This document shows, piece by piece, positions 1,531-49,587 of a DNA stretch of 64,000 nucleotides. Source of the DNA: Patescibacteria group bacterium (GTDB lineage: Bacteria > Patescibacteriota > Microgenomatia > PFEM01 > JAHIFH01); NCBI GenBank assembly GCA_035529375.1, contig DATKWU010000009.1, positions 157,848 through 221,847 of the forward strand, written 5' to 3'. The stretch's first letter is position 1, and each line of letters starts with the position of its first letter. A program made the position numbers and the translations under genes. Below the pieces are notes generated by a model. It was not told the origin of the DNA. It saw only the letters and a program-made list of their open reading frames with translations, and did no database searches.

Positions 1531-1556
1531 CGAGAAAATTCACCTCCTTTTAAAAA

Positions 1557-9431: not shown

Positions 9432-9433
9432 AA

Positions 9434-10219: not shown

Positions 10220-10223
10220 TAAT

Positions 10224-15815: not shown

Positions 15816-15820
15816 CAAAT

Positions 15821-33981: not shown

Positions 33982-34837
33982 TTTCTTTTACCTCCTCAGT
34001 TTGTTTTTCTTTTGGTTTTTCCTCTTTTTTCTCTCCTGGTTTTTCCTCTTGACCTGATTCTGGTTTAGTTTTAGCTGCTTCGGCGGCAGTCAAAGATTCT
34101 TTAGCTTCTTTTTCTCGCCGCAAACGCTCAATTCGCTGTCCCTCAGTTTCTTCAATCTCTTTCTTACCCATCTCCATTAAAGGTACAAACCGCTTGTCTT
34201 TGCCTGTTTTGGTAATAATCAAAAACCCATTTCGGGCTCCTGGAACCAATCCTTTAATTAATAATTCTTCATTTTCCTCATCAACTGCCTGGAGTGTTAA
34301 TCCCTTAACCGCTATTCGGGCGTTACCGGATCGACCTGGCATTTTCTTGCCTTTGTGAACCCTACCGGGTGTGGTGCCTTGGCCAATTGAACCTGGTGCT
34401 CTTTCTCGATCAGATTGACCATGAGTTCGCGGTCCACCTTTAAAGCCCCAGCGTTTCATTACACCGGTAAAACCCTTGCCTTTTGACCAACCAGTCACTT
34501 TTACCTGGTCGCCCGGCTGAAAAATATCAGTAATCTTAATTCGTCCGCCCACTTTAATCTCATCCCCAAAAGGCTTCTCTAATCTAATTTCCCGCAAAAA
34601 ACGAGGAGCCTTTTCTAATTTGGCTCCTTTTAAGTGTCCTTTTAATGGCTTCTTAATCTTAGTTATTTTTTTCTCCCCCCAACCAATCTGAACTGCATGA
34701 TAGCCGTCTTTCTTCTCTTTCCGAACCTGAACCACATGACAAGGCCCAGCTTTAACTCTGGTTACTGGTATTCTTGTTCCGTCTTGAGTAAATCTCTGAT
34801 TTACCTCTTTTTTTATGCCTAAAATCGCGTTCAGCAT
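33974..34837 (-). CDS. rplC: 50S ribosomal protein L3, with an acid/Lys-rich C-terminal extension of about 85 aa
   Basis: The start is taken at MLNAILGIKKEV (34837), whereas the ORF track extends to 34867. The ...FTGVMKRWGFKGGPRTHGQSDRERAPGSIGQ core is L3. The tail EEKPGEKKEEKPKEKQTEEVKENG is atypical for L3. Confidence 0.85.
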   Translation of the reverse strand: MLNAILGIKKEVNQRFTQDGTRIPVTRVKAGPCHVVQVRKEKKDGYHAVQIGWGEKKITKIKKPLKGHLKGAKLEKAPRFLREIRLEKPFGDEIKVGGRIKITDIFQPGDQVKVTGWSKGKGFTGVMKRWGFKGGPRTHGQSDRERAPGSIGQGTTPGRVHKGKKMPGRSGNARIAVKGLTLQAVDEENEELLIKGLVPGARNGFLIITKTGKDKRFVPLMEMGKKEIEETEGQRIERLRREKEAKESLTAAEAAKTKPESGQEEKPGEKKEEKPKEKQTEEVKENG

Positions 34838-34846
34838 TTTGACCAC

Positions 34847-34870
34847 CAAAAAGAGTGCCGGAGGCACTCT
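34847..34870 (-). terminator. Hairpin plus T-run immediately upstream of the rplC start (terminator or attenuator)
   Basis: The minus strand reads AGAGUGCC-UCC-GGCACUCU followed by UUUUUGGUGG and then 6 nt to the rplC ATG. The perfect 8-bp stem sits about 155 nt downstream of the methyltransferase stop. Confidence 0.5.
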
Positions 34871-35025
34871 TAGGATTACTCCATTAACTAAATTAGTTTA
34901 ATTTCAATAGGTGTTTAACCTCACCTCCATTACTGAGTATTATAGAAAAATTTAGGATAAAAAGCAAGCTGATTCTTAGTGTAATAGAAAATGTTCGAAC
35001 CGCGACAATTTTAAGAGAAAATTCT

Positions 35026-35721
35026 TTATTTTTTAATCGCTTTTATTAATAGCCTGGTAGGAACAGAAGAATATTTCTTATATTCCGTCAAGTTTTTTTT
35101 GGCTTCTTCGCCCATAGGAATTGGCTCTTCAACAGTCATTAAGTCAAAACCAGAATTTATTGTTGTATTAATGTAATCTGAAATCTTTTTCGGATGATAT
35201 TCAATTTCTGTTCCCCAAGGCGTTTTTTCTATCTTTACTTTATTACTGAAGTATTCTGAATGATTAGTAACAAACCGAAGTGGGTGAATAGCAATAAGAA
35301 ATAGATATCCTCCTCTTACTAACCATCTGGAGATATTCTCCATTGTTTTCTTAAAATCCTTTTGACTTAAGTAATTAAAAGTCATATTACTTACGACAAG
35401 GTCTAAGCTTTCACTCCGTAGTTTTAAATTAGGCAAGTCTGCCTGTATAAGTTTCACATTAGGAAAAGACTTTCGGGTGATATTTAGCATATCGGAACTT
35501 ATGTCAGTTCCGATAAGATTTTTTTCCTGCACTCCCAAATCGAAAAGAAGTTTCATTGTTCTCCCAGCCCCACAACCAGCATCAAGAACCTGCATATCAC
35601 TTTTCAATATTGGTTTTAAGTGCTTTTCTATTGCTGGTTTTTCTATAAATTTCCAACTAAATGATTTCTCTGAAAACTGGACATACTTGGCGGCTTGGGC
35701 GCCTGAATACTTTATTTTCAT
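35026..35721 (-). CDS. Class I SAM-dependent methyltransferase
   Basis: Motif I VLDAGCGAGR and a DISSDM acidic motif II region. Length is 231 aa. Confidence 0.6.
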   Translation of the reverse strand: MKIKYSGAQAAKYVQFSEKSFSWKFIEKPAIEKHLKPILKSDMQVLDAGCGAGRTMKLLFDLGVQEKNLIGTDISSDMLNITRKSFPNVKLIQADLPNLKLRSESLDLVVSNMTFNYLSQKDFKKTMENISRWLVRGGYLFLIAIHPLRFVTNHSEYFSNKVKIEKTPWGTEIEYHPKKISDYINTTINSGFDLMTVEEPIPMGEEAKKNLTEYKKYSSVPTRLLIKAIKK

Positions 35722-35753
35722 GGGGCTAATTATACTTGAAAAACAAATTATAT

Positions 35754-36965
35754 TCAGTCAACAAAAGTCAGGGCTACACCCTTTTTTCCCATTCTTCCTG
35801 TTCTACCTATCCGATGGACATAATCACCATATGTTCTTGGTACGTCATAGTTGATGACATGAGTCACATTCTCTATGTCAATCCCTCTGGAAGCCACATC
35901 TGTCGCCAGTAAAATCTGAACCTCATTATTCTTTAACATATTCAAAGCCCGCAACCTCTGTCCCTGGCTCTTGTTACCATGAATCGCCGCAGCTTTGAAA
36001 CCTCTCTGGGTTAGATTTGCTTCAAGCTTGTTCACTCCCCATTTGGTTCGGCCAAAAACCAAAACCTTCCTAAATTCCTCTTTAATCAACAGCTGGTGAA
36101 GAATCTCAAGTTTGTTTTTGCCCCGAGTTCGAATTATGTCTTGATCAACATTTTGAGGAGTCACACCGGTTTTTACCGACACTGTTACTGGATCAACTAA
36201 AAAACTTTGCATAATCACCTCAGTTTCCTTTGGTATCGTTGCCGAGAAGAATAAAGATTGGCGACTCTTTGGTAAAAATGAAATAATATGTCGGATATCG
36301 TTGATAAATCCCATGTCCAACATACGATCAACTTCATCTAAGACCACGTTTCCGTATTGACTTAAGTTCAAAATCCGTCGTCCTTCTAGATCCTTTATCC
36401 TCCCAGGGGTTCCAATCACAAAATTTGGCTGACGTGACAACTCGCGTGCCTGGACATTCAGTGAGGCACCTCCAATACATAGTGTTGAGAAAACTCTCGT
36501 ACCCAAACTAAACAATTTAAATTCGTCTTGAATCTGTGAAGCTAGTTCGCGAGTAGGTGCCACGATTAAAACCTTTTGACTTCGATCTTTTGACACTTTT
36601 GTAATCAAAGGTAGTAAAAAAGCCGCTGTTTTTCCAGTTCCTGTGTTGGCAAGACCAACCAAGTCCCTTCCTTCCAATACGGGAAGTATTGCCTGGTCTT
36701 GAATTGCAGTCGGCTTGTCAAAACCACGCACTAGAATATTCTTTTTTACAGTTTCATCCAAAGGAAAGTCTGAAAAACTATTCGCTGGCACATATGGCAT
36801 TTCGACAACGTCAATAGCCTTTTTGACAAACATAAGTGGGTTCAAGGAAGCACCTTTGCTTCGGTATCTACCTTGACCTCCTGATCTGTTTGGTCGATAT
36901 TGACCAAAAGATCTATTATTCTGCCCGCGAAAACCACGGGAACGATCGCGCTTAAAATTTCTCAT
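35754..36965 (-). CDS. DEAD-box ATP-dependent RNA helicase with an arginine-rich N-terminal leader
   Basis: Q-motif and motif I GLANTGTGKTAAF, motif II VLDEVDRM, SAT, and motif VI HRIGRTGR. The 40-aa N-terminal leader MRNFKRDRSRGFRGQNNRSFGQYRPNRSGGQGRYRSKG is unusual. Confidence 0.85.
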   Translation of the reverse strand: MRNFKRDRSRGFRGQNNRSFGQYRPNRSGGQGRYRSKGASLNPLMFVKKAIDVVEMPYVPANSFSDFPLDETVKKNILVRGFDKPTAIQDQAILPVLEGRDLVGLANTGTGKTAAFLLPLITKVSKDRSQKVLIVAPTRELASQIQDEFKLFSLGTRVFSTLCIGGASLNVQARELSRQPNFVIGTPGRIKDLEGRRILNLSQYGNVVLDEVDRMLDMGFINDIRHIISFLPKSRQSLFFSATIPKETEVIMQSFLVDPVTVSVKTGVTPQNVDQDIIRTRGKNKLEILHQLLIKEEFRKVLVFGRTKWGVNKLEANLTQRGFKAAAIHGNKSQGQRLRALNMLKNNEVQILLATDVASRGIDIENVTHVINYDVPRTYGDYVHRIGRTGRMGKKGVALTFVD

Positions 36966-37135
36966 TTTTATTATATTAATGGCTTTAAAGGAGACGATTT
37001 GAAAAAAGGGGAAGATACGAATACCTAAACCAAATAAACCGACTCAAATCAGTATTAACTACTGATCAATATTTAAAGCTAACGGAAAGCATTGTAACAC
37101 ATCTAATTATCACTGTCAAACTATAGGATATTTGC

Positions 37136-37639
37136 TCACTTTTTCCCTTTAGTATCTTTTTTCTTGACTGGCGTTAACACTTCAATAGCTTTATCTGCTT
37201 TCTTGATTGTTGATTTTTTACTCTTTTTCGCCTTATTCTCTACCAACTTTGGTTTCTTCTCCCCGACCGACGATAGCAAATCAATAATTATATCAAGCCT
37301 GGTATTTAGAATTTCAATTTTTTCTACAAGTTGTGAAATGCTACGACTATTTATATCGCTTTGCGAAGGCCTTCTTGAATCTCTGTCGCCAAAACTTCTT
37401 CTGGGAGAACCTCTTCTGTCTCTTGATCTATCACTATCGCTTCCGCCTTTCTTCTCAAAACAGTCACTGCAATATACTGGCTTCTCACCGCTTGGCCTGA
37501 AGGGTACTTGACAATCCTTGCCACATTCATCGCAAACTGCATTGTGCAATAAAGGCCTTCTTGAATCTCTGTCGCCAAAACTTCTTCTGGGAGAACCTCT
37601 TCTGTCTCTTGATCTATCACCTGGATTAAAGTTTCTCAT
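37136..37639 (-). CDS. Arginine-rich (RSFG-repeat) protein with a CxxC...CxxC zinc ribbon and a Lys-rich coiled-coil tail
   Basis: MRNFNPGDRSRDRRGSPRRSFGDRDSRRP appears twice, flanking CDECGKDCQVPFRPSGEKPVYCSDCF. The N-terminus is homologous to the leader of the downstream DEAD-box helicase. Confidence 0.5.
   Translation of the reverse strand: MRNFNPGDRSRDRRGSPRRSFGDRDSRRPLLHNAVCDECGKDCQVPFRPSGEKPVYCSDCFEKKGGSDSDRSRDRRGSPRRSFGDRDSRRPSQSDINSRSISQLVEKIEILNTRLDIIIDLLSSVGEKKPKLVENKAKKSKKSTIKKADKAIEVLTPVKKKDTKGKK
37367..37620. repeat. Exact 69-bp direct repeat (copies at about 37367..37435 and 37552..37620) inside the arginine-rich gene
   Basis: aaggccttcttgaatctctgtcgccaaaacttcttctgggagaacctcttctgtctcttgatctatcac occurs twice, identically, about 116 bp apart. 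It encodes the duplicated DRSRDRRGSPRRSFGDRDSRRP peptide. Confidence 0.8.
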
Positions 37640-37883
37640 AAATGCTCCTACTAAATATTAAATATATTAGTGAGTATATGTATTATTAGTATAAATAGCA
37701 AGGAATACTGTAAAAAAATGCAAATAATTGATGAAATAGGAACGGTTTTTAAATAGTCTCGATACTCGTAATTTTGGTTATATTAAGTTGTAAACTGCTC
37801 AGGATAATAGAAAATGTTTGAACTGCTGTTCAGACTAAAGAATACGCTTATACTTCTTGTTAAATAAAAGCTTTTTAATAACC

Positions 37884-38930
37884 TTAATCTTTTAAGGCTT
37901 TATCAAAAAAATCTACTGAACGTTGGAGTGCTGTATCTAAGTTATTAGAAAGATTATGATTGTCTCCTTCATAAGTGTATAACTCTACGGGCTTGCCGGC
38001 ATTTCTCAACGCTTCATCTAATCTCTGACTAAACAGGAGTGGTACTTCATCATCTGCCGTCCCATGTTGAAGCTGTATCGGGCCGGAAATGTCTTTGACA
38101 AACGATATGGGTGAAATTGACTGCCAAAACTGGGGATTTTCTTCAAAGTTACCGTATTTATCAATCAGTTCCTGTCTTCCTGGCCGTCTTTCCGCCTGTT
38201 CTCTTTGCGAAGGCACCCAAGGCTGAGGATTATGAACTGGATGATGCCAGTTTATGGCTAAATCTTCATAAGAAGCCACTACTCCTGCCCAGATTTCTCC
38301 TGCCTTAATATCTTCTGTTACTACCATTGAACGCAAAACTATCATTCCTCCCATAGAATGACCCCACATGCCGATTCTTTCTGGGTCAGCATCTTTATAT
38401 TTTTTCATCGATGAAACAGCATTCAAAACATCTACTGTATAGGCTGATGAATAATAAGCGCCTTCTGGTTTGCCTTCTGAATTGCCGTGCCCCCTAAAAT
38501 CGGGTTTAAAAACAAGATATCCATTCCTGGAGAAAGCATCAATGTAAGCAACATATTTCTCGGTTGTTCTATACTGTTCTGGTTGAATGTAGCCGTGGTT
38601 AAAAACAATCACCGGCCAGCCGGTCTCAGGTTGTTCTCCTTGTGGTATCGTTAACAGAGCATAAATTTTTAAACCGTCTGATTTATAAGAAGCAATGTAT
38701 CTATTGTAATTTGAGCCGGGAGGCAGTGTCTGTTCGATAACAATATCGCTTCCGGGGTATTCCTGCTTCCTCATATATTCTATGGAGAGAGAGTTGGGTT
38801 CGTTTGTCAATCCGCCGAGGTTCTGCTCATTTATTTCTTTGGGAATACTTTTAAAGAAGCGGTTATAAGTGATAGTGCCGCCGAATATACATACAACAAT
38901 AATAGAAATAACAAGAGTACGTTTTCTCAT
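37884..38930 (-). CDS. Secreted or membrane-anchored alpha/beta hydrolase (prolyl-oligopeptidase/S9 or dienelactone-hydrolase-like)
   Basis: N-terminal TM/signal segment TLVISIIVVCIFGG and a nucleophile elbow GHSMGG, with later Asp/His residues (GTADDEV, GDNHNL). A TATAAT box lies 12 nt upstream with no SD. Confidence 0.6.
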   Translation of the reverse strand: MRKRTLVISIIVVCIFGGTITYNRFFKSIPKEINEQNLGGLTNEPNSLSIEYMRKQEYPGSDIVIEQTLPPGSNYNRYIASYKSDGLKIYALLTIPQGEQPETGWPVIVFNHGYIQPEQYRTTEKYVAYIDAFSRNGYLVFKPDFRGHGNSEGKPEGAYYSSAYTVDVLNAVSSMKKYKDADPERIGMWGHSMGGMIVLRSMVVTEDIKAGEIWAGVVASYEDLAINWHHPVHNPQPWVPSQREQAERRPGRQELIDKYGNFEENPQFWQSISPISFVKDISGPIQLQHGTADDEVPLLFSQRLDEALRNAGKPVELYTYEGDNHNLSNNLDTALQRSVDFFDKALKD

Positions 38931-39076
38931 TTTGCACAAAAAAAATTATTATACCAGGTTTTTCTGACAAAATCATAAAGAAAATTACTTCTGGTTTTTG
39001 AAGATTTTAAGTTTGTGCAGGAATTGAGGGAGGAAATAAAAAAACTAACCTCTCAAGAGGCATTAATAGGCTGTTG

Positions 39077-39745
39077 TTAATTACTCAGCCTATTTCCCCT
39101 CCCTGGATGGGCCGGAACCTGTGCGCCAGCAAACCAATCATTGATTCCGTTATATAAAGATTGGGCAATCTGCTGTTGCCGGTTTCCAGTACCATCAGTT
39201 AATAAACCACATTCAGTCATATTTGATATAAAAGCTACTTCCTGAATAGTGGCGGGCATTTCCGCTTTAAGAATTACTCCAGAGGCAAACTGCAATAATC
39301 CTCCATTGCCAATTCCCAAGCTCGGATATAGTTGATTATGGATTGTCGAGGCTAAATCAATGTCTTTTTTCCATTTAGCGTACAATCCTTGAGTGTAATT
39401 CAATTCATGGTCGGTTGAACCGTTGAAATGAATGGAAACCAGAATTTCACCATCTGTATTGTTGGCAAGAGTGTATCTATCTCTATTGGTCATATAGACA
39501 TCGCTTTCTCTAGTCATGTAAACTGTTACATCGGGCTCAAGCAGTGCTTTTAGCCTTTTTGCTACATCTAAATTTGCATCAGCCTCTGATAAACCAGGAC
39601 ACTCCATTGAACCAGGCTCATCGCCGCCGTGTCCAGCGTCAATGACTATTTTGTGGCCAGTTGCCTCTGCCGTATTGGAAACAAACACTAATGACGCAAC
39701 CCACAATAACAAAACCAAAACAAGAAATACTATTTTTTTATTCAT
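39077..39745 (-). CDS. N-acetylmuramoyl-L-alanine amidase (Amidase_3 family) with a signal peptide
   Basis: KIVIDAGHGGDEPG zinc-site motif and SIHFNG. The start is at the ATG (MNKKIV...) downstream of the AAAGGGGGTGA SD. Confidence 0.7.
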   Translation of the reverse strand: MNKKIVFLVLVLLLWVASLVFVSNTAEATGHKIVIDAGHGGDEPGSMECPGLSEADANLDVAKRLKALLEPDVTVYMTRESDVYMTNRDRYTLANNTDGEILVSIHFNGSTDHELNYTQGLYAKWKKDIDLASTIHNQLYPSLGIGNGGLLQFASGVILKAEMPATIQEVAFISNMTECGLLTDGTGNRQQQIAQSLYNGINDWFAGAQVPAHPGRGNRLSN

Positions 39746-39775
39746 CCATTTCACCCCCTTTCAAACACTAGTTTT

Positions 39776-40378
39776 TTATCTGTAAAACAGTCTGATAAGC
39801 CAGCCGAAAATACTTCCGACCTGCTCTTCTGCCTGAATCTGCTCTTCTAAACTCGTATTCTGCTCAACCAGAGCCTGAATCGCTTCCTCAAGTTGGGTTT
39901 CATCAGCCTGGTTAGCTACTTGGTTTTGCAGTTGAGTTAACTGCCGGATTCTAAGCTGATTTTGTTCCATTTGTTGCTTGAGGTTTTTGATGGCTCCGTA
40001 GTCAGGACCAAACAACTTTTTCATTAAACCTGACCTGGATTCCAATTTGTTCAATTGAGTCTGAGTCTGTGTTTGAGTCTGGACCTGTTCCTGGGCAATA
40101 TTTCTTACCTGACTGCCGACTTCCTCATTTAAACCTTCCATGTCCATTAACTGCTCCATGTGCTGTGTGGCCACCTGCAATTGGGTTTCTTCTCCTTGAT
40201 TTTGAGTTTGGACCTGATTTTGATTCTGAACTTGGTTGCCTTGGGGAGTTGGCGAACCGCTAAGGTGGGTAGATGGGTCCTGGACTTTATTTTGCTGCTG
40301 GACTCCTTGAGCTGATACAAAAGAGGGAACAAGTATTAACGCTAACGCGATTATTGATGTTGCAATCAATTTCTTCAA
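39776..40378 (-). CDS. Secreted Gln-rich coiled-coil protein with a C-terminal hydrophobic tail
   Basis: Signal peptide KKLIATSIIALALILVPSFVSA, QTQTQTQ tracts and a C-terminal SIFGWLIRLFYR. A probable TTG start lies 8 nt after AAGGAGGTG. Confidence 0.45.
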   Translation of the reverse strand: MKKLIATSIIALALILVPSFVSAQGVQQQNKVQDPSTHLSGSPTPQGNQVQNQNQVQTQNQGEETQLQVATQHMEQLMDMEGLNEEVGSQVRNIAQEQVQTQTQTQTQLNKLESRSGLMKKLFGPDYGAIKNLKQQMEQNQLRIRQLTQLQNQVANQADETQLEEAIQALVEQNTSLEEQIQAEEQVGSIFGWLIRLFYR

Positions 40379-40607
40379 TTTTCTCACCTCCTTTTCCAGT
40401 AATTTTACTATATTTTACCTCAAGTTAAAGAAATTTATAAGTTTTAACTCTACTCTACAAAGTTAAAATATTAAAAACCTCTCATTATCTATAATTCGGC
40501 CAGTGAATTTAGCCAGACAGTCTTTCAAGGCTTTAAATAGGCGCGGGAATTGAGAAAGGAAATTGATAGGGTTAAAAACCCTACCACAATACCCGCAATT
40601 ATCTAAT

Positions 40608-41312
40608 TCACTCGTTATAAAGCTCTTGAATTCCTAGCCAGTCTCCGGTTCCTAAGGTTTGCTTATCAATCTCTCCGTAACCGCTATATCCATACATGGT
40701 CAACGCCGTGCTTGGCGGCATGTATAAGTCACTTAATCCATTGTGCCCGAATTCATGAGTGGCAATGTTTTGCAGGTCCATTTTGCCGCTTTCACCAGCC
40801 AAACTCCAAGTGAAACCTGTACTAAATACAACATCAGATTCTACTATAATTTTTAATGCTGGATTATACCAAAATTGATTTACTGCAATAATTCCTGATC
40901 CTAGACTTCCCCATGTTACTGTATTAGTATAATCTCTGTTTTCATTAAAACTTACGCTATCATCTAACTCTGGTGTTGCAAAAAGCTCAAATGAAGTTTC
41001 AATATCCCATGTTTCTAAACTTTCGCTTAGAGTAGCTATCACTTCATTTTCATTTAAGTAGCTTCCATAGGGGTTCACTTCATAAGTCATGGTGTCGGCC
41101 CACCTTATTCCACCGGCAATGAATTTGAATTTATCTACCGTGTCATCCCAAACTGGTTTGGAATTTTTAGCAGATTTTGCGTAGTGAATAAAGGTTATTT
41201 TTTCTAAATCCGGCGGAGTGGTTTCTGGTTTTCCTGGCTGTTCTTTTGCCAATACCGGAAAAGCTAAAGCCAAAAACAGCAAACAACTAGCTCCAATTAA
41301 AAATTTCCTCAT
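40608..41312 (-). CDS. Secreted zinc metalloprotease, metzincin-like with a snapalysin-type HExxHxxGxxD site
   Basis: Signal peptide, then HEFGHNGLSDLY and a Met-turn TALTMYGY. The start is at MRKFLIG after the AAAGGGGGTGA SD. Confidence 0.6.
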   Translation of the reverse strand: MRKFLIGASCLLFLALAFPVLAKEQPGKPETTPPDLEKITFIHYAKSAKNSKPVWDDTVDKFKFIAGGIRWADTMTYEVNPYGSYLNENEVIATLSESLETWDIETSFELFATPELDDSVSFNENRDYTNTVTWGSLGSGIIAVNQFWYNPALKIIVESDVVFSTGFTWSLAGESGKMDLQNIATHEFGHNGLSDLYMPPSTALTMYGYSGYGEIDKQTLGTGDWLGIQELYNE

Positions 41313-41388
41313 ATATTTGTTCACCCCTTTCTAAACACTAAAATTGCTAAATAATCTTACGCGAAAATCGCAAAAGAATATCTATAAA

Positions 41389-41592
41389 TTAGTTCAGAGG
41401 TCCCCAAGGTCCAGCCGGGGCTTCATCCTCCATGTCAAATCGACAACGAGCCTCAGGGCCCCAAGGACCGGACCGATGTTCCGTGCAGTCGCCATCTTCA
41501 GGCTGGCTGGCCGCCATAACGCTCACGCTGAGTACCGACATGATTACTGTCATCAACAGCCCCACGGCCACAATGAAAGTTAATTTCTTCAT
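41389..41592 (-). CDS. Small secreted Cys-containing peptide precursor (67 aa) with GPWGP repeats
   Basis: MKKLTFIVAVGLLMTVIMSVLSVSVMA | ASQPEDGDCTEHRSGPWGPEARCRFDMEDEAPAGPWGPLN. It has the same AAAGGGGGTGA SD as its neighbours, and its GC content is markedly higher than the flanking DNA. Confidence 0.45.
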   Translation of the reverse strand: MKKLTFIVAVGLLMTVIMSVLSVSVMAASQPEDGDCTEHRSGPWGPEARCRFDMEDEAPAGPWGPLN

Positions 41593-41623
41593 TTTATTCA
41601 CCCCCTTTCAATTTCAAATTTTC

Positions 41624-41650
41624 AATAAAAAATCCGCATAAAAGCGGATT
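41624..41650 (-). terminator. Rho-independent terminator downstream of the 2H-phosphoesterase gene
   Basis: The minus strand reads AAUCCGC-UUUUAU-GCGGAUU followed by UUUUUAUUG. It lies only about 25 nt upstream of the peptide gene's SD. Confidence 0.5.
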
Positions 41651-41932
41651 AATAAATTTTCTTTGAATTGGGCAGGCAAGTGACTTGCCTCATTAGTCAG
41701 ACGATAACAAGTTTTTCACGAATAGTCAACCAGCGGGTCAATCGAGATGTAAATAGTAAAAATGAAGCCCATCTAGTTTTAGCCTCATAATTCCCTTACA
41801 ACTAGGGGATTTTATTAGAGGCGATTTAAGGCTAGTTTCTGCCTGAAGTTTTAAACCAAAGCTAACTTGGGTATATTAAATTCCAACTAGCTCACCCGAT
41901 GGGACGATTTTCGAACCTTTATAAAATATTAC

Positions 41933-42487
41933 TTAATAGAAAGTTATTTCTCGAAGCATACCCCATGACTTTGCGTCTGTTGCTTTTTTAAATACAAATA
42001 TTGACTCAACCTTAAAGGAAAACACATTGTTAAAATTTTTTAATTCCTTTTTAATCTTAGGAAGTGAGTTGTTTGGTATTTTCTCCGCAATAGTCATATG
42101 AGGATTAAACTTGTCAGGAGTTGGACTATATTCACTGTAAACACTTTTTGTATAACCTTCTAAGAACTTAACAGTTTTTACTAGTAAGTTAATAATATAT
42201 TTAGACGATTTAGAATCAGGTTTTACAAACGCAACATTATTTCTACCTTTAAAATAATCAATTGAATTAAGAGTAACTTCACCACATTTCGTTTTAGAAA
42301 AGTCGTTTACAAGTTTTGTAAGAAATCGTCTTTCCGTAATACCTTTTAAAAAGAATGGTGGATATACGGTAATGTGTGAGGGAATAGTGTAACTTGTGTA
42401 TTTTGCATACAATCTGCGATATTTATCCATTGTTTTAATAACTTCTTTTGGAGGGAGAATGACTATTAGGTAAGAGTAAGAGTTCAT
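41933..42487 (-). CDS. 2H phosphoesterase superfamily protein (LigT/cyclic-phosphodiesterase-like)
   Basis: Two H-x-T-x motifs (PSHITVYP and NPHMTIAE) with appropriate spacing. The gene is AT-rich and has a leaderless-type promoter. Confidence 0.5.
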   Translation of the reverse strand: MNSYSYLIVILPPKEVIKTMDKYRRLYAKYTSYTIPSHITVYPPFFLKGITERRFLTKLVNDFSKTKCGEVTLNSIDYFKGRNNVAFVKPDSKSSKYIINLLVKTVKFLEGYTKSVYSEYSPTPDKFNPHMTIAEKIPNNSLPKIKKELKNFNNVFSFKVESIFVFKKATDAKSWGMLREITFY

Positions 42488-42637
42488 ACGTGAAGTATAT
42501 CATCTGAGGCTAAAGGTCGTGGCTCGAGGATCTTAACGCTAATATAACCAGTCAATTCGTGCGTATTTTCAAGGTATTTGAGGATTCCAAGTTTATCAGT
42601 CAACTACAGGAAGAAATGAATAGAGTGATACCAGCAG

Positions 42638-43042
42638 TCAATCTTTCAAGTGGTACGATTCGTTCATCCATTCAATGATTTCATCGTCTATTTCTTGCTT
42701 GCTGCTTATATCAAAACAATTCTTATATACCATGCTGGACATTGGTACACATACTTTCAACCTTGGGCTATCAAGTTTTCTATCTAATGCAAACCTTATC
42801 TCTAACCTATCATTTTTAGGTAACGCTGCCAAAAAGTCATATTTACCAAACAAATGAACACAGCAAGGAATAGAAATTATTTTGCATTTACCAATCTTGC
42901 TGTCAATTTGTTCTACTAAAAAGTCAAACAGCTTTTTTGCTTGCTTCTTACCTACAAAATGCTTTTGCAAAGGAATCTTTTTACAACTATGAGGTTGGTT
43001 GGCGCCTCTGAAAATTCGTTTGCATTTAGGACACGTCCACAT
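42638..43042 (-). CDS. Hypothetical protein with an N-terminal C2HC zinc finger
   Basis: MWTCPKCKRIFRGANQPHSC. A TACAAT box ends 6 nt before the ATG. Confidence 0.4.
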   Translation of the reverse strand: MWTCPKCKRIFRGANQPHSCKKIPLQKHFVGKKQAKKLFDFLVEQIDSKIGKCKIISIPCCVHLFGKYDFLAALPKNDRLEIRFALDRKLDSPRLKVCVPMSSMVYKNCFDISSKQEIDDEIIEWMNESYHLKD

Positions 43043-43260
43043 GGTTCAATTGTACTAGTTTTATCAGGAAATGATAAATGGAAGGTTATATTAAAGACTA
43101 TTCGACTAATTTAATTTCATGGCTAAATTTCTTTATGCTCCCCAAACCAAAAGATATTATATCCAAGGTTTTAGGCACAATTCTTACTGCTTTTGAGGAT
43201 GTAAACCAGATGGAAGTGATTAAAGTGAGGTGGGAGGAGATAAAGAAGTTACAGCCACAA

Positions 43261-43545
43261 CTAGCGACTTCCTAGTTTTTTTATCCTCTCAGCTAATAAA
43301 CCAGTTAATGAACCTATCCCAAACCAGAAAATTCCAACAAAAAGAACATTAAAAATAAAATTGTCAGAAAATGCTCGGCAACAGGTTTCAAAAATCTCTT
43401 CAAAAATGATTGAGGGAATAACCATCCAAAATAAAATACTTATTTTACCTCCAGTAATGAGTCCGAAGAGTAACCCCAAAACTATCAAGACTGGAAAAAT
43501 CATAACTCCGGAAACTAACCAATAAGGTAAGTTTTTAAGTTTCAT
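43261..43545 (-). CDS. Small membrane protein
   Basis: 94 aa with three predicted TM helices and a leaderless-type promoter (TGATATAAT 4 nt before the ATG). Confidence 0.4.
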   Translation of the reverse strand: MKLKNLPYWLVSGVMIFPVLIVLGLLFGLITGGKISILFWMVIPSIIFEEIFETCCRAFSDNFIFNVLFVGIFWFGIGSLTGLLAERIKKLGSR

Positions 43546-43648
43546 TATTTTAATTATATCAGAAGTTCGAAGGGCAACACTTGGTATATTAAAAACGAGA
43601 CTAAATTTCTAAGCCCTCCCTTGCGGACGATGTTCTAACTAGCCTATT

Positions 43649-44050
43649 TTAGTAGATTTTTTTTCGAAGATGTGTTAAATAGGCAGAAAAAATTGTTGTT
43701 AAAAGTTGCAAGAAAGGAGAAATAACAACCATCAAGACTAACCATCCCCAAAAACTAGCAACTGGAGTAAAAAGTATTAGAGGTTCACCAAAATTAGCAA
43801 TATCTTTTGTAGAGTCTAAACAATATGGCAACATCGCTAATAACCAAATAACAGCAAGGATTAAAAAGGTAAATAACGAGGCGAAGATTGAATATCTAAA
43901 AACCTTCCGCTCATCAATAAAATTACGAGCAAGAAAATATCCCAGAGGAAAACCTAAAAGTATATTAAAAAACGGGACTCCCATGCCCATGCCTATACAA
44001 ATAATGTCAATTGCCAGATAACCTAAAATCCATTTTTTCTTTATTTTCAT
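43649..44050 (-). CDS. Small membrane protein
   Basis: 133 aa with four predicted TM helices. It has a classical SD (AAGGAGG) and a TATAAT box after the upstream terminator. Confidence 0.45.
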   Translation of the reverse strand: MKIKKKWILGYLAIDIICIGMGMGVPFFNILLGFPLGYFLARNFIDERKVFRYSIFASLFTFLILAVIWLLAMLPYCLDSTKDIANFGEPLILFTPVASFWGWLVLMVVISPFLQLLTTIFSAYLTHLRKKIY

Positions 44051-44140
44051 TTTTCCTCCTTATGCCAATATTTTACATCAATCTTATAAAAGACTAAACC
44101 ATGTCCAGGGTGGGGTGGTAGATGGAAATTATTATAACCA

Positions 44141-44183
44141 ACAAAAAAGGACGTAGTATCGGAATAATTTGATACCTGCGTCC
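44141..44183 (-). terminator. Rho-independent terminator after the 172-aa hypothetical gene
   Basis: The minus strand reads GGACGCAGGUAUC...GAUACUACGUCC followed by UUUUUUGUUGG. Confidence 0.5.
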
Positions 44184-44258
44184 AACCGAGCTCCCCCTAA
44201 AGGACCTATTCTGCAACCAAGAACTAGAATTTGATTTGAGCCTACAGGAAGTTAAAAC

Positions 44259-44777
44259 TTACTTTCTAGTCCAACTCGCTGATTGACTCATTGTTACGCT
44301 CAATCTATCTCCATATAGACACATCTCATCTATCACAACTCGATACTCCAGTGCACTTTCTATCATTGATTTAAGATAAATTGCTACAGGCAGAGTTCCA
44401 TCGCTTTCTTGTCCGAAAGCTTCTAATACTCGTATTCGTGTGTCCTTATCTGTATGGATAACTACACTTTCTTCGCTAGAAAGAACTCCTTGAGAATCAT
44501 TCTTCACTCTACCCTCTATTACCAGGCCGACCCTTTCTTTGGGGTTATCGAGGTCTGAAACTGTATATGGTGTAAGGAGGTATAAACCGTCTTGTGTAAC
44601 TTCGGCCACAAAATTAGACAGAAGAACCGGATGGTCCTCAGAGTCATCAATCTCAGCCTGCCTTTTGAATAACTCGTGTAGTTCATCCATGGTTAGAGAA
44701 TATTCACCTCTGCTTTTTTCCGCCACAACCTCTATTAAAGCAATGTGCACTGGTCTTAACTCTGGTCTCTCAGGCAT
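44259..44777 (-). CDS. Hypothetical protein
   Basis: 172 aa acidic soluble protein with higher GC than its neighbours and an extended -10 (TGATATACT) ending 8 nt before the ATG. Confidence 0.4.
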   Translation of the reverse strand: MPERPELRPVHIALIEVVAEKSRGEYSLTMDELHELFKRQAEIDDSEDHPVLLSNFVAEVTQDGLYLLTPYTVSDLDNPKERVGLVIEGRVKNDSQGVLSSEESVVIHTDKDTRIRVLEAFGQESDGTLPVAIYLKSMIESALEYRVVIDEMCLYGDRLSVTMSQSASWTRK

Positions 44778-44879
44778 GTCCGAAGTATATCAAATCTGAA
44801 GCTAAAATCCTAGCTCCCCACGGTATACAGGCTTCGAGACTGGCTAACAGACAACTTTTTAGATATTCCGGCTCTAAGA

Positions 44880-45272
44880 CTAAGCGTTGCTATCTAAGAA
44901 TTGCTTAAGCGCTTGCAGGTCTTTTTTATCGGGGTCGTAATAATATGAGGTTATACCGAGCGATTGAGCGCTTTTTGTTGCTTCTGGACTGTGTTCAAAA
45001 TAGACAACATCTTCCGGTTGGAGGCTAAAGTGTTCTAGCATTTTCCTAAAATACTCGGGGTCAGTCTTTTCCGGATTGTGCTTTAGTGTAAAAACCTCAT
45101 AGGGCATTTTGTCCAAGCCAAACTTCTTAAATTGCTTATCGTTCGCGCCGGTTAAGATTATTTTTTGATTTGGAAAGCCCTCAAGAAGATCGTGCATTTC
45201 CTTAAAAATCTTAAAGGCATCCTTACCCTTAACCACAAAAGCGCCAATTGCGTCTACTAAAATAGTTTTCAT
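44880..45272 (-). CDS. Hypothetical protein, possibly a degenerate HAD-like fold
   Basis: ILVDAIGAF (a weak DxDG-like motif I) and a VVYFEHSPEATKSAQSLGI motif III/IV-like stretch. The assignment is tentative. Confidence 0.3.
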   Translation of the reverse strand: MKTILVDAIGAFVVKGKDAFKIFKEMHDLLEGFPNQKIILTGANDKQFKKFGLDKMPYEVFTLKHNPEKTDPEYFRKMLEHFSLQPEDVVYFEHSPEATKSAQSLGITSYYYDPDKKDLQALKQFLDSNA

Positions 45273-45347
45273 AATTGAAGTATAACAAAAAGCGTTTTAG
45301 GGTTACATTCTATGCTCCGCGAACAGGACTCGAACTAATATTAAAAT

Positions 45348-45656
45348 TTACATTTTGATTTCAATATCCACTCCTGAAGGAAGTTCAAGATGCATTAAGG
45401 AGTCAATTGTTTTACTGGTTGGTTCAAGAATATCAATCAATCTTTTATGAGTGAGGATTTGGAAGTGTTCTCTGGCGTCTTTGTCAGTGTGGGGACTGGT
45501 GGTAACCGTAATCAGTTTTCGGTGGGTTGGTAGAGGCACAGGACCCACTACTTTGGCACCACTAGCTAAGGCTGTTTCTAAGATTTTTTCGCAACTCTCA
45601 TCGATGACTCGATGATCATATGCTTTTAAACGTACCCTTATTCTGCCCTTTGGCAT
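45348..45656 (-). CDS. rpsJ: 30S ribosomal protein S10
   Basis: [25 protein letters not shown] is the S10 N-terminus. The start is taken at 45656 (the ORF track extends further), directly after the tuf stop. Confidence 0.85.
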
Positions 45657-45663
45657 TCTCTCC

Positions 45664-46854
45664 TTAGGCGATAATTTTACTAATTGCTCCCGCCCCAACA
45701 GTGTGACCACCCTCACGGATAGCAAAACGGAAGCCTTCTTCCATAGCGACCGGCTGAATAAGCTTGACTGTCATCTTGGCATTATCACCAGGCATGACCA
45801 TTTCTACTCCCTTAGAGAGAGTGACTTCACCGGTTACATCTGTAGTTCGAACATAAAATTGAGGTTTGTAACCACTGAAGAAAGGGGTATGACGACCACC
45901 TTCTTCTTTGGTAAGGATATAAACTTCTGCCTCAAATTCTTGATGAGGCTTAATGGTACCAGGTTTTGCTAAAGCTTGACCTCGTTCCACGTCTTTCTTT
46001 TCGACTCCTCGAAGAAGAATACCAACGTTATCACCAGCTTCACCTTCATCAAGAGTTTTACGGAACATCTCAACACCAGTGACCGTTGTCTTTTGGGTGT
46101 CGCGAAGACCGATGATTTCGATTTCATCACCAACTTTAATTTTACCTCGTTCGATTCTTCCAGTGACAACAGTCCCTCGACCTTTAATAGAGAAAACATC
46201 CTCAAGAGGCATCAAGAAGGGTTTGTCTAAAGGCCGTTTAGGTGTCGGAATATTTTCATCAACCGCCTTCATCAGTTCAAGAACGGCTTTTTCTGCTTCA
46301 GCATCGCCCTCAAGGGCCTTAGCGGCGGAGCCTCGAATAATCGCAATTTTGTCACCAGGGAATTTATATTTAGTTAAAAGTTCCCTAATTTCCATTTCAA
46401 CCAGATCAAGCATCTCTTTGTCCTTAACCAAATCGACTTTATTTAGGAAAACGATCATGGCTGGCACATCAACCTGACGAGCCAAGAGAATATGCTCTCG
46501 AGTCTGAGGCATTGGACCATCATCGGCGGCGACAACAAGAATGGCACCATCCATTTGAGCAGCACCGGTAATCATGTTTTTAATAAAGTCTTTGTGTCCG
46601 GGACAGTCAATGTGAGCATAGTGACGCTTTTCCGTCTCATACTCAATGTGGGAAATAGAAATTGTCAAACCCCGTTCTTTTTCTTCAGGAGCGTTATCAA
46701 TCTGATCAAAGGGAATATATTTTGTCCCCGTATTTGCTTTCTCTAAAACCTTGGTAATTGCTGAGGTTAAAGTCGTCTTACCATGGTCAACGTGACCAAT
46801 GGTCCCAATATTAACGTGAGGTTTTTCTCTTTTAAATTTTGTTTTTTCAGCCAC
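45664..46854 (-). CDS. tuf: Elongation factor Tu
   Basis: [24 protein letters not shown]... is full-length EF-Tu. Confidence 0.95.
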
Positions 46855-49169: not shown

Positions 49170-49526
49170 CTAATAACCTCGCTCTTTCCCTAGGCTTCTT
49201 GTTTCCTTAAGCAATTCTTGTTGAATCTCATTATCTTCCGTTTCGAAATGATGGCCGCTTGCAAAATTTCTTACTTCCATCATCCCAAATATCCCTGAAC
49301 CATCAAAAACAACAAAAATGTCATGTTGAGGTAATCTGTAATTACCTACGACCCTATTAGTTTGGTGGTGTTCAATACAAAGTTCGGCTAAATCACCTTC
49401 AGCCCTGATAACAAGTCTATTTCTCGCCCAAGCAACCATCTCACTCTTTCTAAGGGAAAGTGGGCCTTCCATTTCGTCCCAACAATCCCGACAGATTGCT
49501 TTTACTTTAGGTTTTCTAATCGACAT
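49170..49526 (-). CDS. Hypothetical protein
   Basis: 118 aa ORF with no recognised motif. It is unusually placed between rpsG and fusA. Confidence 0.4.
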   Translation of the reverse strand: MSIRKPKVKAICRDCWDEMEGPLSLRKSEMVAWARNRLVIRAEGDLAELCIEHHQTNRVVGNYRLPQHDIFVVFDGSGIFGMMEVRNFASGHHFETEDNEIQQELLKETRSLGKERGY

Positions 49527-49587
49527 AAACTAAAAAATTGCTTTTGGGCAGGCAATAAAATAAAAATAATAGAATCCTGACTTCTAC

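Follow-up and report, generated by a model that had tools for sequence, protein, structure and literature searches.

About 10.4 kb of ordinary, non-mobile genes separates rpsJ from rplC in the genome of a Patescibacteria (CPR) bacterium. The window that we analyzed, the whole stretch of DNA under study, comprises 64,000 nt of a Patescibacteria group bacterium (contig DATKWU010000009.1 of assembly GCA_035529375.1, positions 157,848-221,847 of the forward strand). Within it, 14 co-directional non-ribosomal genes stand between rpsJ and rplC, with fusA and tuf upstream of the islet and rplD and the remaining ribosomal cluster downstream (Table 1). The block is probably an islet of non-mobile genes, specific to this lineage, that accumulated in the spacer separating two transcription units of the ribosomal cluster.

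Results

The islet and its extent

A sequence-only reading of this DNA had reported that rpsJ and rplC are split by about 14 non-ribosomal genes. Gene calls and coordinates hold, and nine independent assemblies agree: the same rpsJ-islet-rplC arrangement is found in seven contigs with an identical helicase and two with an identical rpsJ, drawn from ENA, Logan, JGI and NCBI assemblies. Homology between the window and the sister species, L153, ends 35 nt past the rpsJ stop and restarts 145 nt before the rplC ATG, which places the truly inserted DNA at about 34983-45312, with the variable left edge at about 45312. In the interval first proposed, 34868-45347, the final ~130 nt (34868-34967) belong to the conserved promoter and leader of rplC and are not cargo.

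Table 1. Features of the islet and its flanks, in the direction of coding
Feature	Position	Strand	Evidence or start type
tuf (EF-Tu)	45664..46854	-	ORF and translation; Pfam GTP_EFTU on the identical gene in L062
rpsJ (S10)	45348..45656	-	Ribosomal_S10 1e-32
35 nt after rpsJ, still homologous to sister species	45313..45347	-	blastn against L153, homology 46000-45313
HAD-IA family hydrolase, 130 aa	44880..45272	-	leaderless-type start, TATACT 6 nt before ATG
orf172, clade-restricted protein	44259..44777	-	leaderless-type start
Small membrane protein, 133 aa	43649..44050	-	SD-led (AAGGAGG)
Small membrane protein, 94 aa	43261..43545	-	leaderless-type start, TATAAT 7 nt before ATG
DUF5655 protein, 134 aa, N-terminal Cys/His motif CxxC...HxC	42638..43042	-	PF18899 1.5e-6; leaderless-type start
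2H / LigT-like phosphoesterase, 184 aa	41933..42487	-	PF13563 2e-14; leaderless-type start
Terminator-like hairpin, either strand, between 2H and secreted-peptide genes	41631..41650	-	hairpin scan
Secreted peptide, 67 aa	41389..41592	-	SD AAAGGGGGTGA; GC 0.48 locally
Secreted M10 (matrixin-like) metalloprotease	40608..41312	-	PF00413 1e-9; SD AAAGGGGTGA
Terminator-like hairpin 3' of M10 gene	40564..40586	-	hairpin scan
Q-rich secreted coiled-coil-like protein, 200 aa	39776..40378	-	ORF translation
Secreted N-acetylmuramoyl-L-alanine amidase (Amidase_3)	39077..39745	-	PF01520 6e-35; SD AAAGGGGGTGA
Terminator-like hairpin 3' of amidase gene	39048..39061	-	hairpin scan
Membrane-anchored or secreted S9/alpha-beta-fold hydrolase, 348 aa	37884..38930	-	Peptidase_S9 5e-19 and related families
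Arg-rich CxxC-x17-CxxC (zf_Tbcl_2) protein	37136..37639	-	PF23477 2e-17, TIGR04272
DEAD-box RNA helicase (CshA/RhlE-like)	35754..36965	-	PF00270 and PF00271
Class I SAM methyltransferase	35026..35721	-	leaderless-type start
rplC promoter-like element: TTGCTT (34967-34962), 17 nt, TATAAT (34944-34939)	34939..34967	-	read from sequence
rplC leader, ~95 nt, three predicted hairpins	34838..34932	-	alignments and RNAalifold
rplC (L3), first gene of downstream unit rplC-rplD-rplW-rplB ... secY	33974..34837	-	PF00297; L062 gene order

Among the islet products, orf172 has no Pfam, PHROG or PADLOC match and belongs to a tiny family (only 4 clusters among 5.8 billion); its AlphaFold2 model predicts an alpha+beta fold (pLDDT 87), for which Foldseek returned no match to solved structures at E<=0.001. 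The 67-aa peptide consists of a signal peptide followed by a 38-aa part with two Cys and two GPWGP motifs. In the related locus L066, a homologue of the Q-rich protein (29-32%) is encoded by the second gene downstream of that for the DEAD helicase, and the Amidase_3 protein has no close relative among viral contigs. Inside the zf_Tbcl_2 gene, a 69-nt stretch occurs twice as a perfect direct repeat (37366-37434 and 37552-37620), and the gene recurs as a pair with the DEAD helicase in L064, L075, L077 and L099; the helicase has CshA as its top NCBIfam match, under the curated cutoff.

Most islet genes appear to be self-contained and leaderless, with a -10 box placed 6-7 nt ahead of the ATG, and the many self-contained transcription units bear out the description of the block as modular. 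It also has its own terminators, as had been proposed: three terminator-like hairpins fall between genes on the coding strand (the count for the region is 17 vs 10.4 ± 3.4 in shuffles). The reported repeated intergenic motif exists and corresponds to the SD region AAAGGGGGTGA together with the opening codons of the secreted-protein genes. SD-led and leaderless initiation are both real, but they are no sign of a mosaic origin, both styles being present across the window and in the sister islet.

Flanking units and the rplC leader

The upstream unit reads rpsL-rpsG-(two accessory genes)-fusA-tuf-rpsJ, with tuf as the next-to-last gene. Because rpsJ starts 7 nt past the tuf stop and its SD lies at that stop (upstream sequence gcctaaggagagaATG), we take rpsJ, which is 97-98% identical in L001, L146 and L153, to be the final gene of a str-type unit. 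There is no clear terminator 3' of rpsJ, so read-through from rpsJ into the islet is possible.

On the other side, the promoter-like element before rplC is kept in the window, L001, L002, L144, L145, L146 and L153. It falls under the threshold of a generic promoter scan, with 3/6 matches in its -35 hexamer, and that scan is itself not above chance (35 found vs 31.8 ± 4.6). The last hairpin of the leader, AAGAGUGCC-UCC-GGCACUCUU (34871-34851), is terminator-like and is followed by a U-rich stretch, GGUGG and the rplC ATG; automatic callers choose a GTG at 34867 as the rplC start. A covariance model of the leader finds exactly one copy, 5' of rplC, in each of 7 related loci and in 0/27 other loci, and the leader has no Rfam match. 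We regard it as a candidate attenuator or regulatory leader. Promoter and leader are conserved whatever DNA stands further upstream.

From these elements we infer how the islet and the rplC unit are transcribed, and that the islet would sit exactly at the boundary between two transcription units. To place the block inside one of the most conserved loci of the genome, as the sequence-only reading did, thus overstates the case: it lies at a putative unit boundary and leaves the rplC promoter and leader intact.

Origin of the islet genes

Orthologues were traced for three of the 14 islet genes. Those of the DEAD helicase are 85%, 74% and 61% identical in relatives and never adjoin rplC (L064 has the order MT-like, Zn-ribbon, DEAD, two RimK-like genes, NusA). 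The methyltransferase has orthologues at 80%, 72%, 68% and 67%, the first in the sister species at the same junction and the others at three different non-ribosomal loci, one of them in the assembly of L001. Homologues of orf172 (66%, 61% and 55%) occupy ordinary CPR chromosomal neighborhoods. Because graded orthologues are present in relatives at ordinary, differing loci, sequence comparison indicates that these three genes are clade-native.

That the block is instead a horizontally acquired genomic island, be it cargo of foreign or mobile origin or the remains of an integrative element, is unlikely. Such an origin would fit its absence from the next outgroups, its internal terminators and self-contained promoters, and the tiny orf172 family. 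It would also fit a lower tetranucleotide correlation of the block to the remainder of the window (r 0.88-0.91, vs 0.92-0.98) and codon-usage scores slightly below average in 12/13 block genes, with z down to -2.7 in orf172. However, the codon test is weak because rpsJ itself, scored as a 125-aa ORF, has z -2.9, and codon bias in the block is only mildly atypical. The heterogeneous local GC, from 0.28 in the 2H gene (the most AT-rich gene of the block, with a gene GC of 0.30) to 0.48 in the peptide gene, would fit as well; against it, mean GC equals that of the host, GC3 is host-like, and genes elsewhere in the window span 0.27-0.44.

Signs of mobility are likewise missing. Profile searches of the islet proteins found no integrase or transposase among the protein family matches, in keeping with the earlier remark that none is visible; PHROG and PADLOC gave nothing specific and no phage or defence match; the islet has no tRNA, att-like site or flanking repeat; and no viral relatives were found. 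Clustered at 90%, all islet proteins form groups of 1-3 members that come from this one organism, and they are not spread beyond it. The graded orthologues of the tested genes in sister lineages are consistent with vertical descent, and the methyltransferase, in place in the sister islet, argues for stepwise turnover and not a single element. The term acquired cargo, taken as foreign or mobile DNA, therefore does not fit, although some islet genes could have been transferred from related CPR, since codon scores deviate slightly.

Another account, to which we give little credence, is adaptive co-location, in which RNA and translation genes (the DEAD-box helicase, its Zn-ribbon partner, the methyltransferase and the 2H phosphoesterase) would have been recruited beside the ribosomal operons to share the regulation of ribosome synthesis. 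In its favor, the helicase resembles CshA, RhlE and DbpA, and members of this family act in RNA decay and ribosome assembly. The methyltransferase is kept in the rpsJ-rplC junction of two species, an FtsJ/TlyA-like methyltransferase stands directly 5' of rplC in a Woesebacteria genome, and in Gammaproteobacteria the tRNA-modification genes tusDCB are inserted between rpoBC and str (PMC8046335). Yet translation has no link to the majority of the islet genes (envelope hydrolases, membrane proteins, HAD), the helicase and methyltransferase lie at unrelated loci in all other relatives, the sister islet carries LTD/fn3, GNAT and EamA genes, and each islet gene has an apparent promoter of its own.

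Derived state and turnover at the junction

DNA identities give the tree ((window, L153/L145), L144), (L001, L146, L002), with tuf DNA of the window 93% identical to that of L153 and 86% to that of L144. The junction is also split in L153, by 6.8 kb and eight genes, LTD/fn3, GNAT and EamA among them; only the methyltransferase CDS is homologous between the two islets (80% aa, 85% DNA). In L001 the junction holds a single unrelated 140-aa ORF. Because rpsJ and rplC are 131 bp apart in L144 and 111 bp apart in L146/L147, the next outgroups, these comparisons show the islet to be a derived addition and not an ancestral arrangement. The proposal of an insertion accordingly survives the synteny comparison: close relatives with the same content were not found, and the content in the sister differs.

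In a biased sample of 50-odd loci, gene-sized rpsJ-rplC gaps occur, among species representatives, only in CPR-like loci (L001, L004, L042, L046, L054 and probably L005), whereas every gap is <=289 bp in the loci without a Patescibacteria/CPR label for which both genes could be located. Related lineages also gain and swap genes at rpsJ|rplC, a junction that appears to be recurrently used. The presence of genes in this junction in several CPR lineages, together with an archaeal S10 encoded with EF-1alpha and apart from the L3 cluster (L060), might suggest that the separation is ancestral for the clade and that relatives with adjacent rpsJ and rplC re-joined them or lost the block. We consider this highly improbable: gaps are short in two successive outgroups and in most CPR loci, the inserted genes vary from one examined lineage to the next, and gain is more parsimonious than a precise loss that would have had to restore the same ~30-nt spacer and promoter in several lineages.

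That unrelated contigs were fused by an error of assembly or binning has a negligible chance, even though the source is a metagenome-assembled genome and contigs of two relatives stop ~140 bp upstream of rplC: independent assemblies from different samples and pipelines (contigs up to 359 kb) cross both junctions with the same sequence order, GC skew and coding-strand bias are continuous over the junctions, and the identical arrangement in all nine assemblies rules out a chimera or misassembly.

Discussion

Multigene insertions between operons of the rpoBC-str-S10-spc cluster have been described (Brandis 2019, 2021); in other phyla, a few genes invade the inter-operon region and rearrangement follows, without long-distance HGT (PMC8046335, PMC6735719). 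The islet matches these insertions, here at the rpsJ|rplC link. Like them, it places non-ribosomal genes in an inter-operon spacer whose flanking genes remain contiguous in outgroups, consists of same-lineage genes without long-distance HGT or an evident mobile element, and would have begun with a small insertion that was followed by further change. Unlike them, it has its breakpoint at rpsJ|rplC and not tuf/rpsJ, its host belongs to Patescibacteria/CPR, its turnover is faster (a near-complete difference in content at 93% tuf DNA identity), and it is made up mostly of single leaderless units where theirs form an operon.

In archaea and in cyanobacteria and plastids, S10 ends a str-type unit after EF-Tu/EF-1alpha, apart from the L3-L4-L23-L2 unit. 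The islet genome resembles this order in that rpsJ is tightly joined to tuf and the L3-led unit has its own start, but the two units of the clade are normally adjacent (111-131 bp) and their boundary here is putative. Oliveira, Touchon, Cury and Rocha reportedly set out in 2017 a hot-spot model of gene gain, in which chromosomal integration hot spots have core genes on either side. As in such hot spots, close relatives carry different accessory genes in one and the same interval, bordered by highly conserved core genes; unlike them, the islet is small, lacks integrases and mobile elements, and includes at least some relocated native genes.

The E. coli S10 leader acts through L4-mediated attenuation and translational control. 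The rplC leader is likewise structured, has a terminator-like hairpin and directly precedes the first cistron of the L3-L4-L23-L2 unit, but it lies 5' of rplC and not of rpsJ, does not resemble the E. coli leader in sequence or by Rfam and is confined to a genus-level clade, where attenuation or protein binding is putative. The E. coli leader is reported to be narrowly distributed in Gammaproteobacteria (PMC3616713).

The reading that we prefer, an islet built up in the spacer, would work as follows. In a genus-level, Microgenomatia-like clade of Patescibacteria, rpsJ would close a str-type unit and rplC would head the next with its own promoter and leader; because of this, the ~30-nt spacer between the rpsJ stop and the rplC promoter could take in DNA without uncoupling either unit. 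From an ancestor with contiguous rpsJ and rplC, a methyltransferase gene would have entered the spacer in the common ancestor with the sister species, after which each lineage would have added genes of its own, 13 in this organism and 7 in the sister species. We favor gain by illegitimate or duplication-and-loss rearrangement, or by homologous exchange through the highly conserved flanks, as the probable route. The gained genes would be ordinary clade-native chromosomal genes that serve RNA metabolism or encode hydrolases of the cell envelope, small membrane proteins and proteins of unknown function, and most of them, as compact leaderless units, would remain expressible wherever inserted. The islet is an event of a known kind, in a new lineage and at a new position.

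Gene order and the point of insertion

Gene calls and independent assemblies confirm that rpsJ and rplC are separated by 14 non-ribosomal ORFs, as the sequence-only reading had claimed. From high to low coordinates, the upstream genes are rpoB, rpoC, rpsL, rpsG, two accessory genes, fusA, tuf and rpsJ, all on the minus strand; on the other side, rplC is followed by rplD, and the S10/spc-type cluster continues as far as secY. Almost every item in the gene list first proposed for the block is matched by Pfam, NCBIfam and the translations. Starting at rpsJ, this islet encodes a HAD hydrolase, orf172 (a clade-restricted 172-aa protein), two small membrane proteins, a DUF5655 protein with a Cys/His N-terminus, a 2H/LigT phosphoesterase, a 67-aa secreted peptide, a secreted M10 metalloprotease, a Q-rich secreted protein, an Amidase_3 enzyme and an S9/alpha-beta hydrolase; at the rplC end lie an Arg-rich CxxC-x17-CxxC protein (Zn-ribbon), a DEAD-box RNA helicase and a class I SAM methyltransferase.

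The tuf stop and the rpsJ start are 7 nt apart, and rpsJ has its Shine-Dalgarno (SD) sequence where tuf ends. Upstream of rplC, an alignment of the window with six relatives (L001, L002, L144, L145, L146 and the sister species L153) reveals a strongly conserved element of ~130 nt, whatever lies beyond it, which comprises a promoter-like sequence and a predicted three-hairpin leader. From these features we infer that rpsJ closes a str-type unit in this clade and that rplC opens the next. The islet begins 35 nt past the rpsJ stop and ends at the conserved rplC promoter; the insertion thus appears to fall between predicted transcription units rather than inside one, precisely in a spacer of ~30 nt, so that neither unit would be disrupted. 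In archaea, cyanobacteria and plastids, S10 likewise stands at the end of a str-type unit, with a separate L3-led unit; among the compared loci, the archaeal L060 has rpsJ in this position.

A covariance model of the rplC leader finds exactly one copy, always before rplC, in 7/7 of these loci and none in 27 others. It has no Rfam match at gathering thresholds (best E-value 0.1, to an unrelated sRNA). Compensatory changes occur in 3 of 25 predicted pairs, at an effective sequence number of only 1.06; because this covariation is thin, we term the leader a candidate regulatory element, possibly a clade-specific attenuator or autoregulatory leader. The terminator-like hairpin directly before the rplC start codon is invariant among the seven loci. 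At 287 aa, compared with ~210 in most bacteria, the L3 protein itself is lengthened by a Lys/Glu-rich C-terminal stretch of ~75 aa that L001 and other close relatives have as well.

Coordinates of the features discussed; loci other than the window are relatives or other CPR genomes
Feature	Locus	Positions	Strand	Remarks
fusA	window	46928-49054	-	
tuf	window	45664-46854	-	
rpsJ	window	45348-45656	-	
orf172	window	44259-44777	-	
Secreted peptide gene	window	41389-41592	-	
Terminator-like hairpins	window	41650-41631; 40586-40564; 39061-39048	-	coding strand
Zn-ribbon gene	window	37136-37639	-	
Direct repeat, 69 nt	window	37366-37434; 37552-37620		in Zn-ribbon gene
DEAD-box helicase gene	window	35754-36965	-	
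Methyltransferase gene	window	35026-35721	-	
Two-copy repeat, 29 nt	window	34975-35003; 37798-37826		83% identical
rplC promoter-like element	window	34967-34939	-	TTGCTT, 17 nt, TATAAT
rplC leader	window	within 34838-34967	-	~95 nt, three predicted hairpins
Last leader hairpin	window	34871-34851	-	AAGAGUGCC-UCC-GGCACUCUU, then U-rich sequence, GGUGG, ATG at 34837
rplC	window	33974-34837	-	
L3 C-terminal extension	window	33974-34200	-	
rpsG-fusA insert	window	49170-50163	-	
Sulfotransferase gene	window	49588-50163	-	
orf118	window	49170-49526	-	118 aa
Leaderless-type starts elsewhere	window	51160 (rpsL); 50163 (sulfotransferase); 8034 (gene 7441-8034); 8092 (8092-8487); 8538 (8538-9431)		
SD-led genes elsewhere	window	1039-1530; 5339-5722; 6877-7269; 12034-12306		
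Cupin gene	L066	1534-1917		
Cupin orthologue	window	5339-5722	+	
SET-domain gene	L151	within 526-1571		
SET-domain gene	L154	within 9416-10699		
RNase P RNA, bacterial class A	window	2366-2659	-	
tRNA-Pro(GGG)	window	15742-15816	+	
Genes in the rpsJ-rplC gap, Woesebacteria	L004	5523-6821		three ORFs: 128 aa, 107 aa, FtsJ/TlyA-like methyltransferase
Genes in the rpsJ-rplC gap, Gracilibacteria	L042	7764-9882		ABC transporter and 112-aa ORF
Genes in the rpsJ-rplC gap, Saccharibacteria	L054	8833-9747		aldo-keto reductase
rpsJ-rplC gap, Peribacteria	L046			gene-sized
rpsJ-rplC gap, Shapirobacteria	L005			probable; no rpsJ within 1.1 kb

Origin of the islet genes

Three of the 14 islet genes (those for the helicase, the methyltransferase and orf172) were traced by orthologue identity and context. 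All three have graded orthologues in relatives, at ordinary and mutually different loci. Helicase orthologues (85% in L064/L065, 74% in L066, 61% and so on) never adjoin rplC: the order in L064 is a methyltransferase-like gene, Zn-ribbon, DEAD, two RimK-like genes and NusA, and that in L066 is DEAD, cupin and a Q-rich protein. Simple translocation from a nusA-proximal site was also considered; the final ORF of the window encodes the C-terminus of an alanyl-tRNA-synthetase-like protein rather than NusA. An 80% orthologue of the methyltransferase sits in the junction of the sister species L153, and those at 72% (L156), 68% (L154, another contig of the L001 assembly, with the order SET, methyltransferase, RuvC) and 67% (L157) occupy three unrelated loci. 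The orf172 family comprises four clusters among 5.8 billion; one homologue (L151) adjoins a SET-domain gene, and another (L148) lies in a chromosomal stretch that, a few kilobases upstream, has genes for NusG, RNase HII and D-Ala-D-Ala ligase.

Searches for the block as a conserved unit elsewhere failed: 0/80 metagenomic helicase loci carry the other block genes in order, with an M10 gene near DEAD (L079) and a Q-rich protein gene near DEAD (L066) as single cases, and the Zn-ribbon and DEAD pair is its sole recurring unit. Because the traced genes have graded orthologues at other loci and only this pair recurs together, we favour reading the islet as a set of clade-native genes that were relocated, perhaps with some exchange among related CPR mixed in, rather than as an element. 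For the three traced genes, the orthologues point to an origin within the lineage, without long-distance horizontal transfer.

Several neighbouring observations concern the genes themselves. The L066 cupin gene is directly downstream of DEAD, and its window orthologue (65% aa) is 30 kb away from the helicase gene; non-ribosomal gene order is evidently fluid in this clade. A SET-domain gene is found immediately upstream of both the orf172 homologue in L151 and the methyltransferase orthologue in L154, a hint that orf172 and the methyltransferase may once have lain in the same neighbourhood before both reached the islet. Within the Zn-ribbon gene, a perfect 69-nt direct repeat, spaced 186 nt, duplicates the DRSRDRRGSPRRSFGDRDSRRP segment and thus points to recent internal duplication or gene conversion. 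The secreted peptide gene is situated just upstream of the M10 protease gene; past the signal peptide, its 38 aa include two Cys and two GPWGP motifs, and the peptide could be a protease substrate, a pro-peptide or a signalling peptide.

We weighed this reading against the alternative that the block is a foreign island. In favor of the latter, the block has lower tetranucleotide correlations (0.88-0.91, against 0.92-0.98), and synonymous-codon scores are slightly low in 12/13 block genes. The codon test is weak, because rpsJ (scored as a 125-aa ORF; z = -2.9) and the demonstrably native helicase (-2.2) also score low. On the mosaic composition reported for the block, the evidence points both ways: these two signals and a GC-rich peptide gene (0.48, the most GC-rich 300 bp in the block) are present, but mean GC is the same as in the host, and the GC and GC3 of its genes stay inside the window's range.

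Against an island, the block proteins yielded no integrase, recombinase, transposase or remnant in Pfam, NCBIfam, PHROG and PADLOC scans, in line with what the sequence-only reading had seen of integrases and transposases. No repeat family flanks the block, att-like direct repeats included, and no tRNA or tmRNA insertion site is found at it, the sole tRNA in the window being 19 kb away. PHROG matches are limited to generic HAD proteins and generic methyltransferases, two scans of viral contigs in IMG/VR gave no viral relatives of the amidase or the M10 protease, and PADLOC matches only generic helicase and methyltransferase domains, without partner genes of a defence system. With all of these searches negative, a mobile element or prophage was rejected. 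All ten block proteins looked up fall into 90%-identity clusters of one to three members from the same organism. Together with the graded orthologues of the traced genes and the host-like GC, these results render a foreign island unlikely. The idea of acquired cargo inside an operon is accordingly abandoned: mobility genes are lacking, GC is host-like, the traced genes are native and the site is a predicted operon boundary.

A recombinase hidden in orf172 was rejected: its confident AlphaFold2 model (pLDDT 87) has no recombinase-like fold, and we assign it no fold because the best Foldseek PDB match has E 4e-3 and TM 0.26. The DUF5655 protein matched no PDB sequence. A 29-nt two-copy repeat lacks conservation in L153 and is treated as chance.

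Adaptive recruitment of RNA and translation genes beside ribosomal operons would be compatible with relocation of clade-native genes; as an explanation in its own right, we consider it quite unlikely.

Relatives and the ancestral arrangement

On the evidence of L3, tuf and fusA, the window belongs among Microgenomatia-like Patescibacteria/CPR. DNA identity of tuf, rplC and rplD groups the compared loci as ((window, L153/L145), L144), (L001, L146, L002), with L003 and other CPR further out. In L144 (tuf 86%) and L146/L147, tuf, rpsJ and rplC are contiguous, with rpsJ-rplC gaps of 131 and 111 bp, respectively; the gap in L001 holds a single unrelated 140-aa ORF. The closest relative, L153 (GCA_964653685.1; tuf DNA 93%, fusA protein 97%), has a junction likewise split, by 6.8 kb and eight genes: a 388-aa protein (opposite strand), an LTD/fn3 protein, a GNAT, a 163-aa protein, an EamA fragment, a methyltransferase, a 186-aa protein (opposite strand) and a 97-aa protein.

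By blastn, the window and L153 share three homologous stretches at the junction. The first runs through rpsJ to 35 nt past its stop (45313), the second is the methyltransferase coding sequence alone (35725-35032; 85% DNA identity), and the third resumes 145 nt upstream of the rplC ATG (34982 and below). Apart from the methyltransferase, which was probably already in the spacer in the common ancestor of the two organisms, all junction genes differ. Because the outgroups are contiguous and the L153 content differs, we take rpsJ-rplC contiguity to be ancestral. The block is thus a derived insertion, as first proposed, and the closest relative does not carry the same gene content, which would have spoken against this; that the split itself is ancestral is very improbable, given gaps of only 131 and 111 bp in the outgroups. 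An assembly artefact has practically no chance of explaining the split, and chimerism is excluded because the identical arrangement recurs in separate assemblies (seven contigs with an identical helicase and two with an identical rpsJ, up to 359 kb, from ENA, Logan, JGI and NCBI). The L002 and L145 contigs break off 138 and 143 bp before rplC (in L002 at the contig start), at the same place; contig ends just upstream of the rplC promoter would fit strain-level junction variation that breaks assemblies.

Expression signals

In eight islet genes the ATG follows 6-7 nt after a -10-like hexamer, a leaderless architecture that is evident for HAD, orf172, the 94-aa membrane protein, DUF5655, 2H and the methyltransferase and less clear for the S9 hydrolase and DEAD. 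The four secreted-protein genes are led by an SD sequence, AAAGGGGGTGA or AAGGAGGTGA. Both initiation styles described by the sequence-only reading are therefore real, but they are no sign of mosaic origin, since both occur across the window and in the sister islet, there including a GGGGGTGA variant. Initiation style may instead reflect position in the transcription unit. The repeated intergenic motifs are present too, but prove to be just the SD region and first codons (repeat families D3 and D6). The block's own terminators have a counterpart in three intergenic terminator-like hairpins on the coding strand. A generic promoter scan was set aside as evidence because the 35 promoters found are not above chance (31.8 +/- 4.6).

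Many genes of the window, among them rpsL as the first gene of the str-type unit, have their ATG 6-7 nt after a TATAAT-like box and no SD, and leaderless mRNAs may be common in this organism. Judging from these signals, compact promoter-plus-ORF units would stay expressible after relocation, which may be why such genes accumulate in permissive spacers. In the literature open to search, we found nothing on leaderless genes in Patescibacteria/CPR or on CPR ribosomal-operon synteny.

Other junctions and other CPR genomes

A second junction, rpsG-fusA, behaves alike, its gene content varying among the window, L153, L001 and L146. The window's sulfotransferase and orf118 are both present in L153 (95% and 82% aa), only orf118 (51%) is present in L001, and L146 has three different genes, for a 743-aa GT2/deacetylase and for 241-aa and 279-aa proteins.

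We also compared rpsJ-rplC gaps among species-representative loci for which both genes could be located. Only CPR-like genomes (L001, L004, L042, L046, L054 and probably L005) have gaps of gene size, and the junction genes of the other CPR classes are unrelated to those of the islet. In all such loci not labelled Patescibacteria/CPR, the gap is at most 289 bp. Because this sample is small and biased, a CPR-restricted loosening of rpsJ-rplC is a lead rather than a result.

The only Rfam matches in the window at the gathering threshold are RNase P RNA and tRNA-Pro(GGG). The former, at 114 bits, is shortened (294 nt matched to a 367-position model).

Discussion

The block is probably a non-mobile islet at the boundary between a str-type unit ending in rpsJ and an rplC-led unit, where clade-native genes, most of them with expression signals of their own, turn over rapidly. 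Its genes could have been gained by duplication and loss, by illegitimate recombination or by exchange through the conserved flanks. Elsewhere, the first step is the invasion of an inter-operon region by a few genes, such as bfd-bfr or ilv-leu between str and S10; selection to keep the operons contiguous then weakens and more rearrangement follows, without long-distance horizontal transfer (PMC6735719, PMC8046335). The islet fits such inter-operon multigene insertion (Brandis 2019/2021) in lying between predicted units, with contiguous outgroups and with traced genes of the same lineage, but differs in three respects: its breakpoint follows rpsJ instead of preceding it, it belongs to a CPR lineage, and its content turns over fast between sister species. 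Integration hot spots flanked by core genes are similar too, but the islet lacks mobile elements.

A broader reading, which we offer tentatively and with some doubt, is that in Patescibacteria rpsJ-rplC has turned into a genuine operon boundary, comparable to that of archaea and cyanobacteria, and into a recurrent hot spot where compact, self-expressing leaderless genes accumulate and are exchanged fast, the boundary being marked in this clade by an undescribed, possibly autoregulatory rplC leader. If so, exchange is so quick that sister species share only one junction gene, and the leader, with its attenuator-like hairpin, may autoregulate the L3-L4 operon.

No new mobile element or functional system is revealed here. 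Gene order in the str-S10-spc cluster is the textbook case of a frozen arrangement, and the cluster is a source of marker genes for placing uncultured bacteria; in this CPR case one of its links, rpsJ-rplC, is loose, with contents that differ even between sister species. The model of operon concatenation and insertion is thereby extended past Gammaproteobacteria and Bacilli, and in CPR metagenome bins contig breaks or interrupted syntenic marker blocks may occur at this junction. Most worth following up are the apparent loosening of rpsJ-rplC across CPR and the conserved rplC leader, whose regulatory role is testable.
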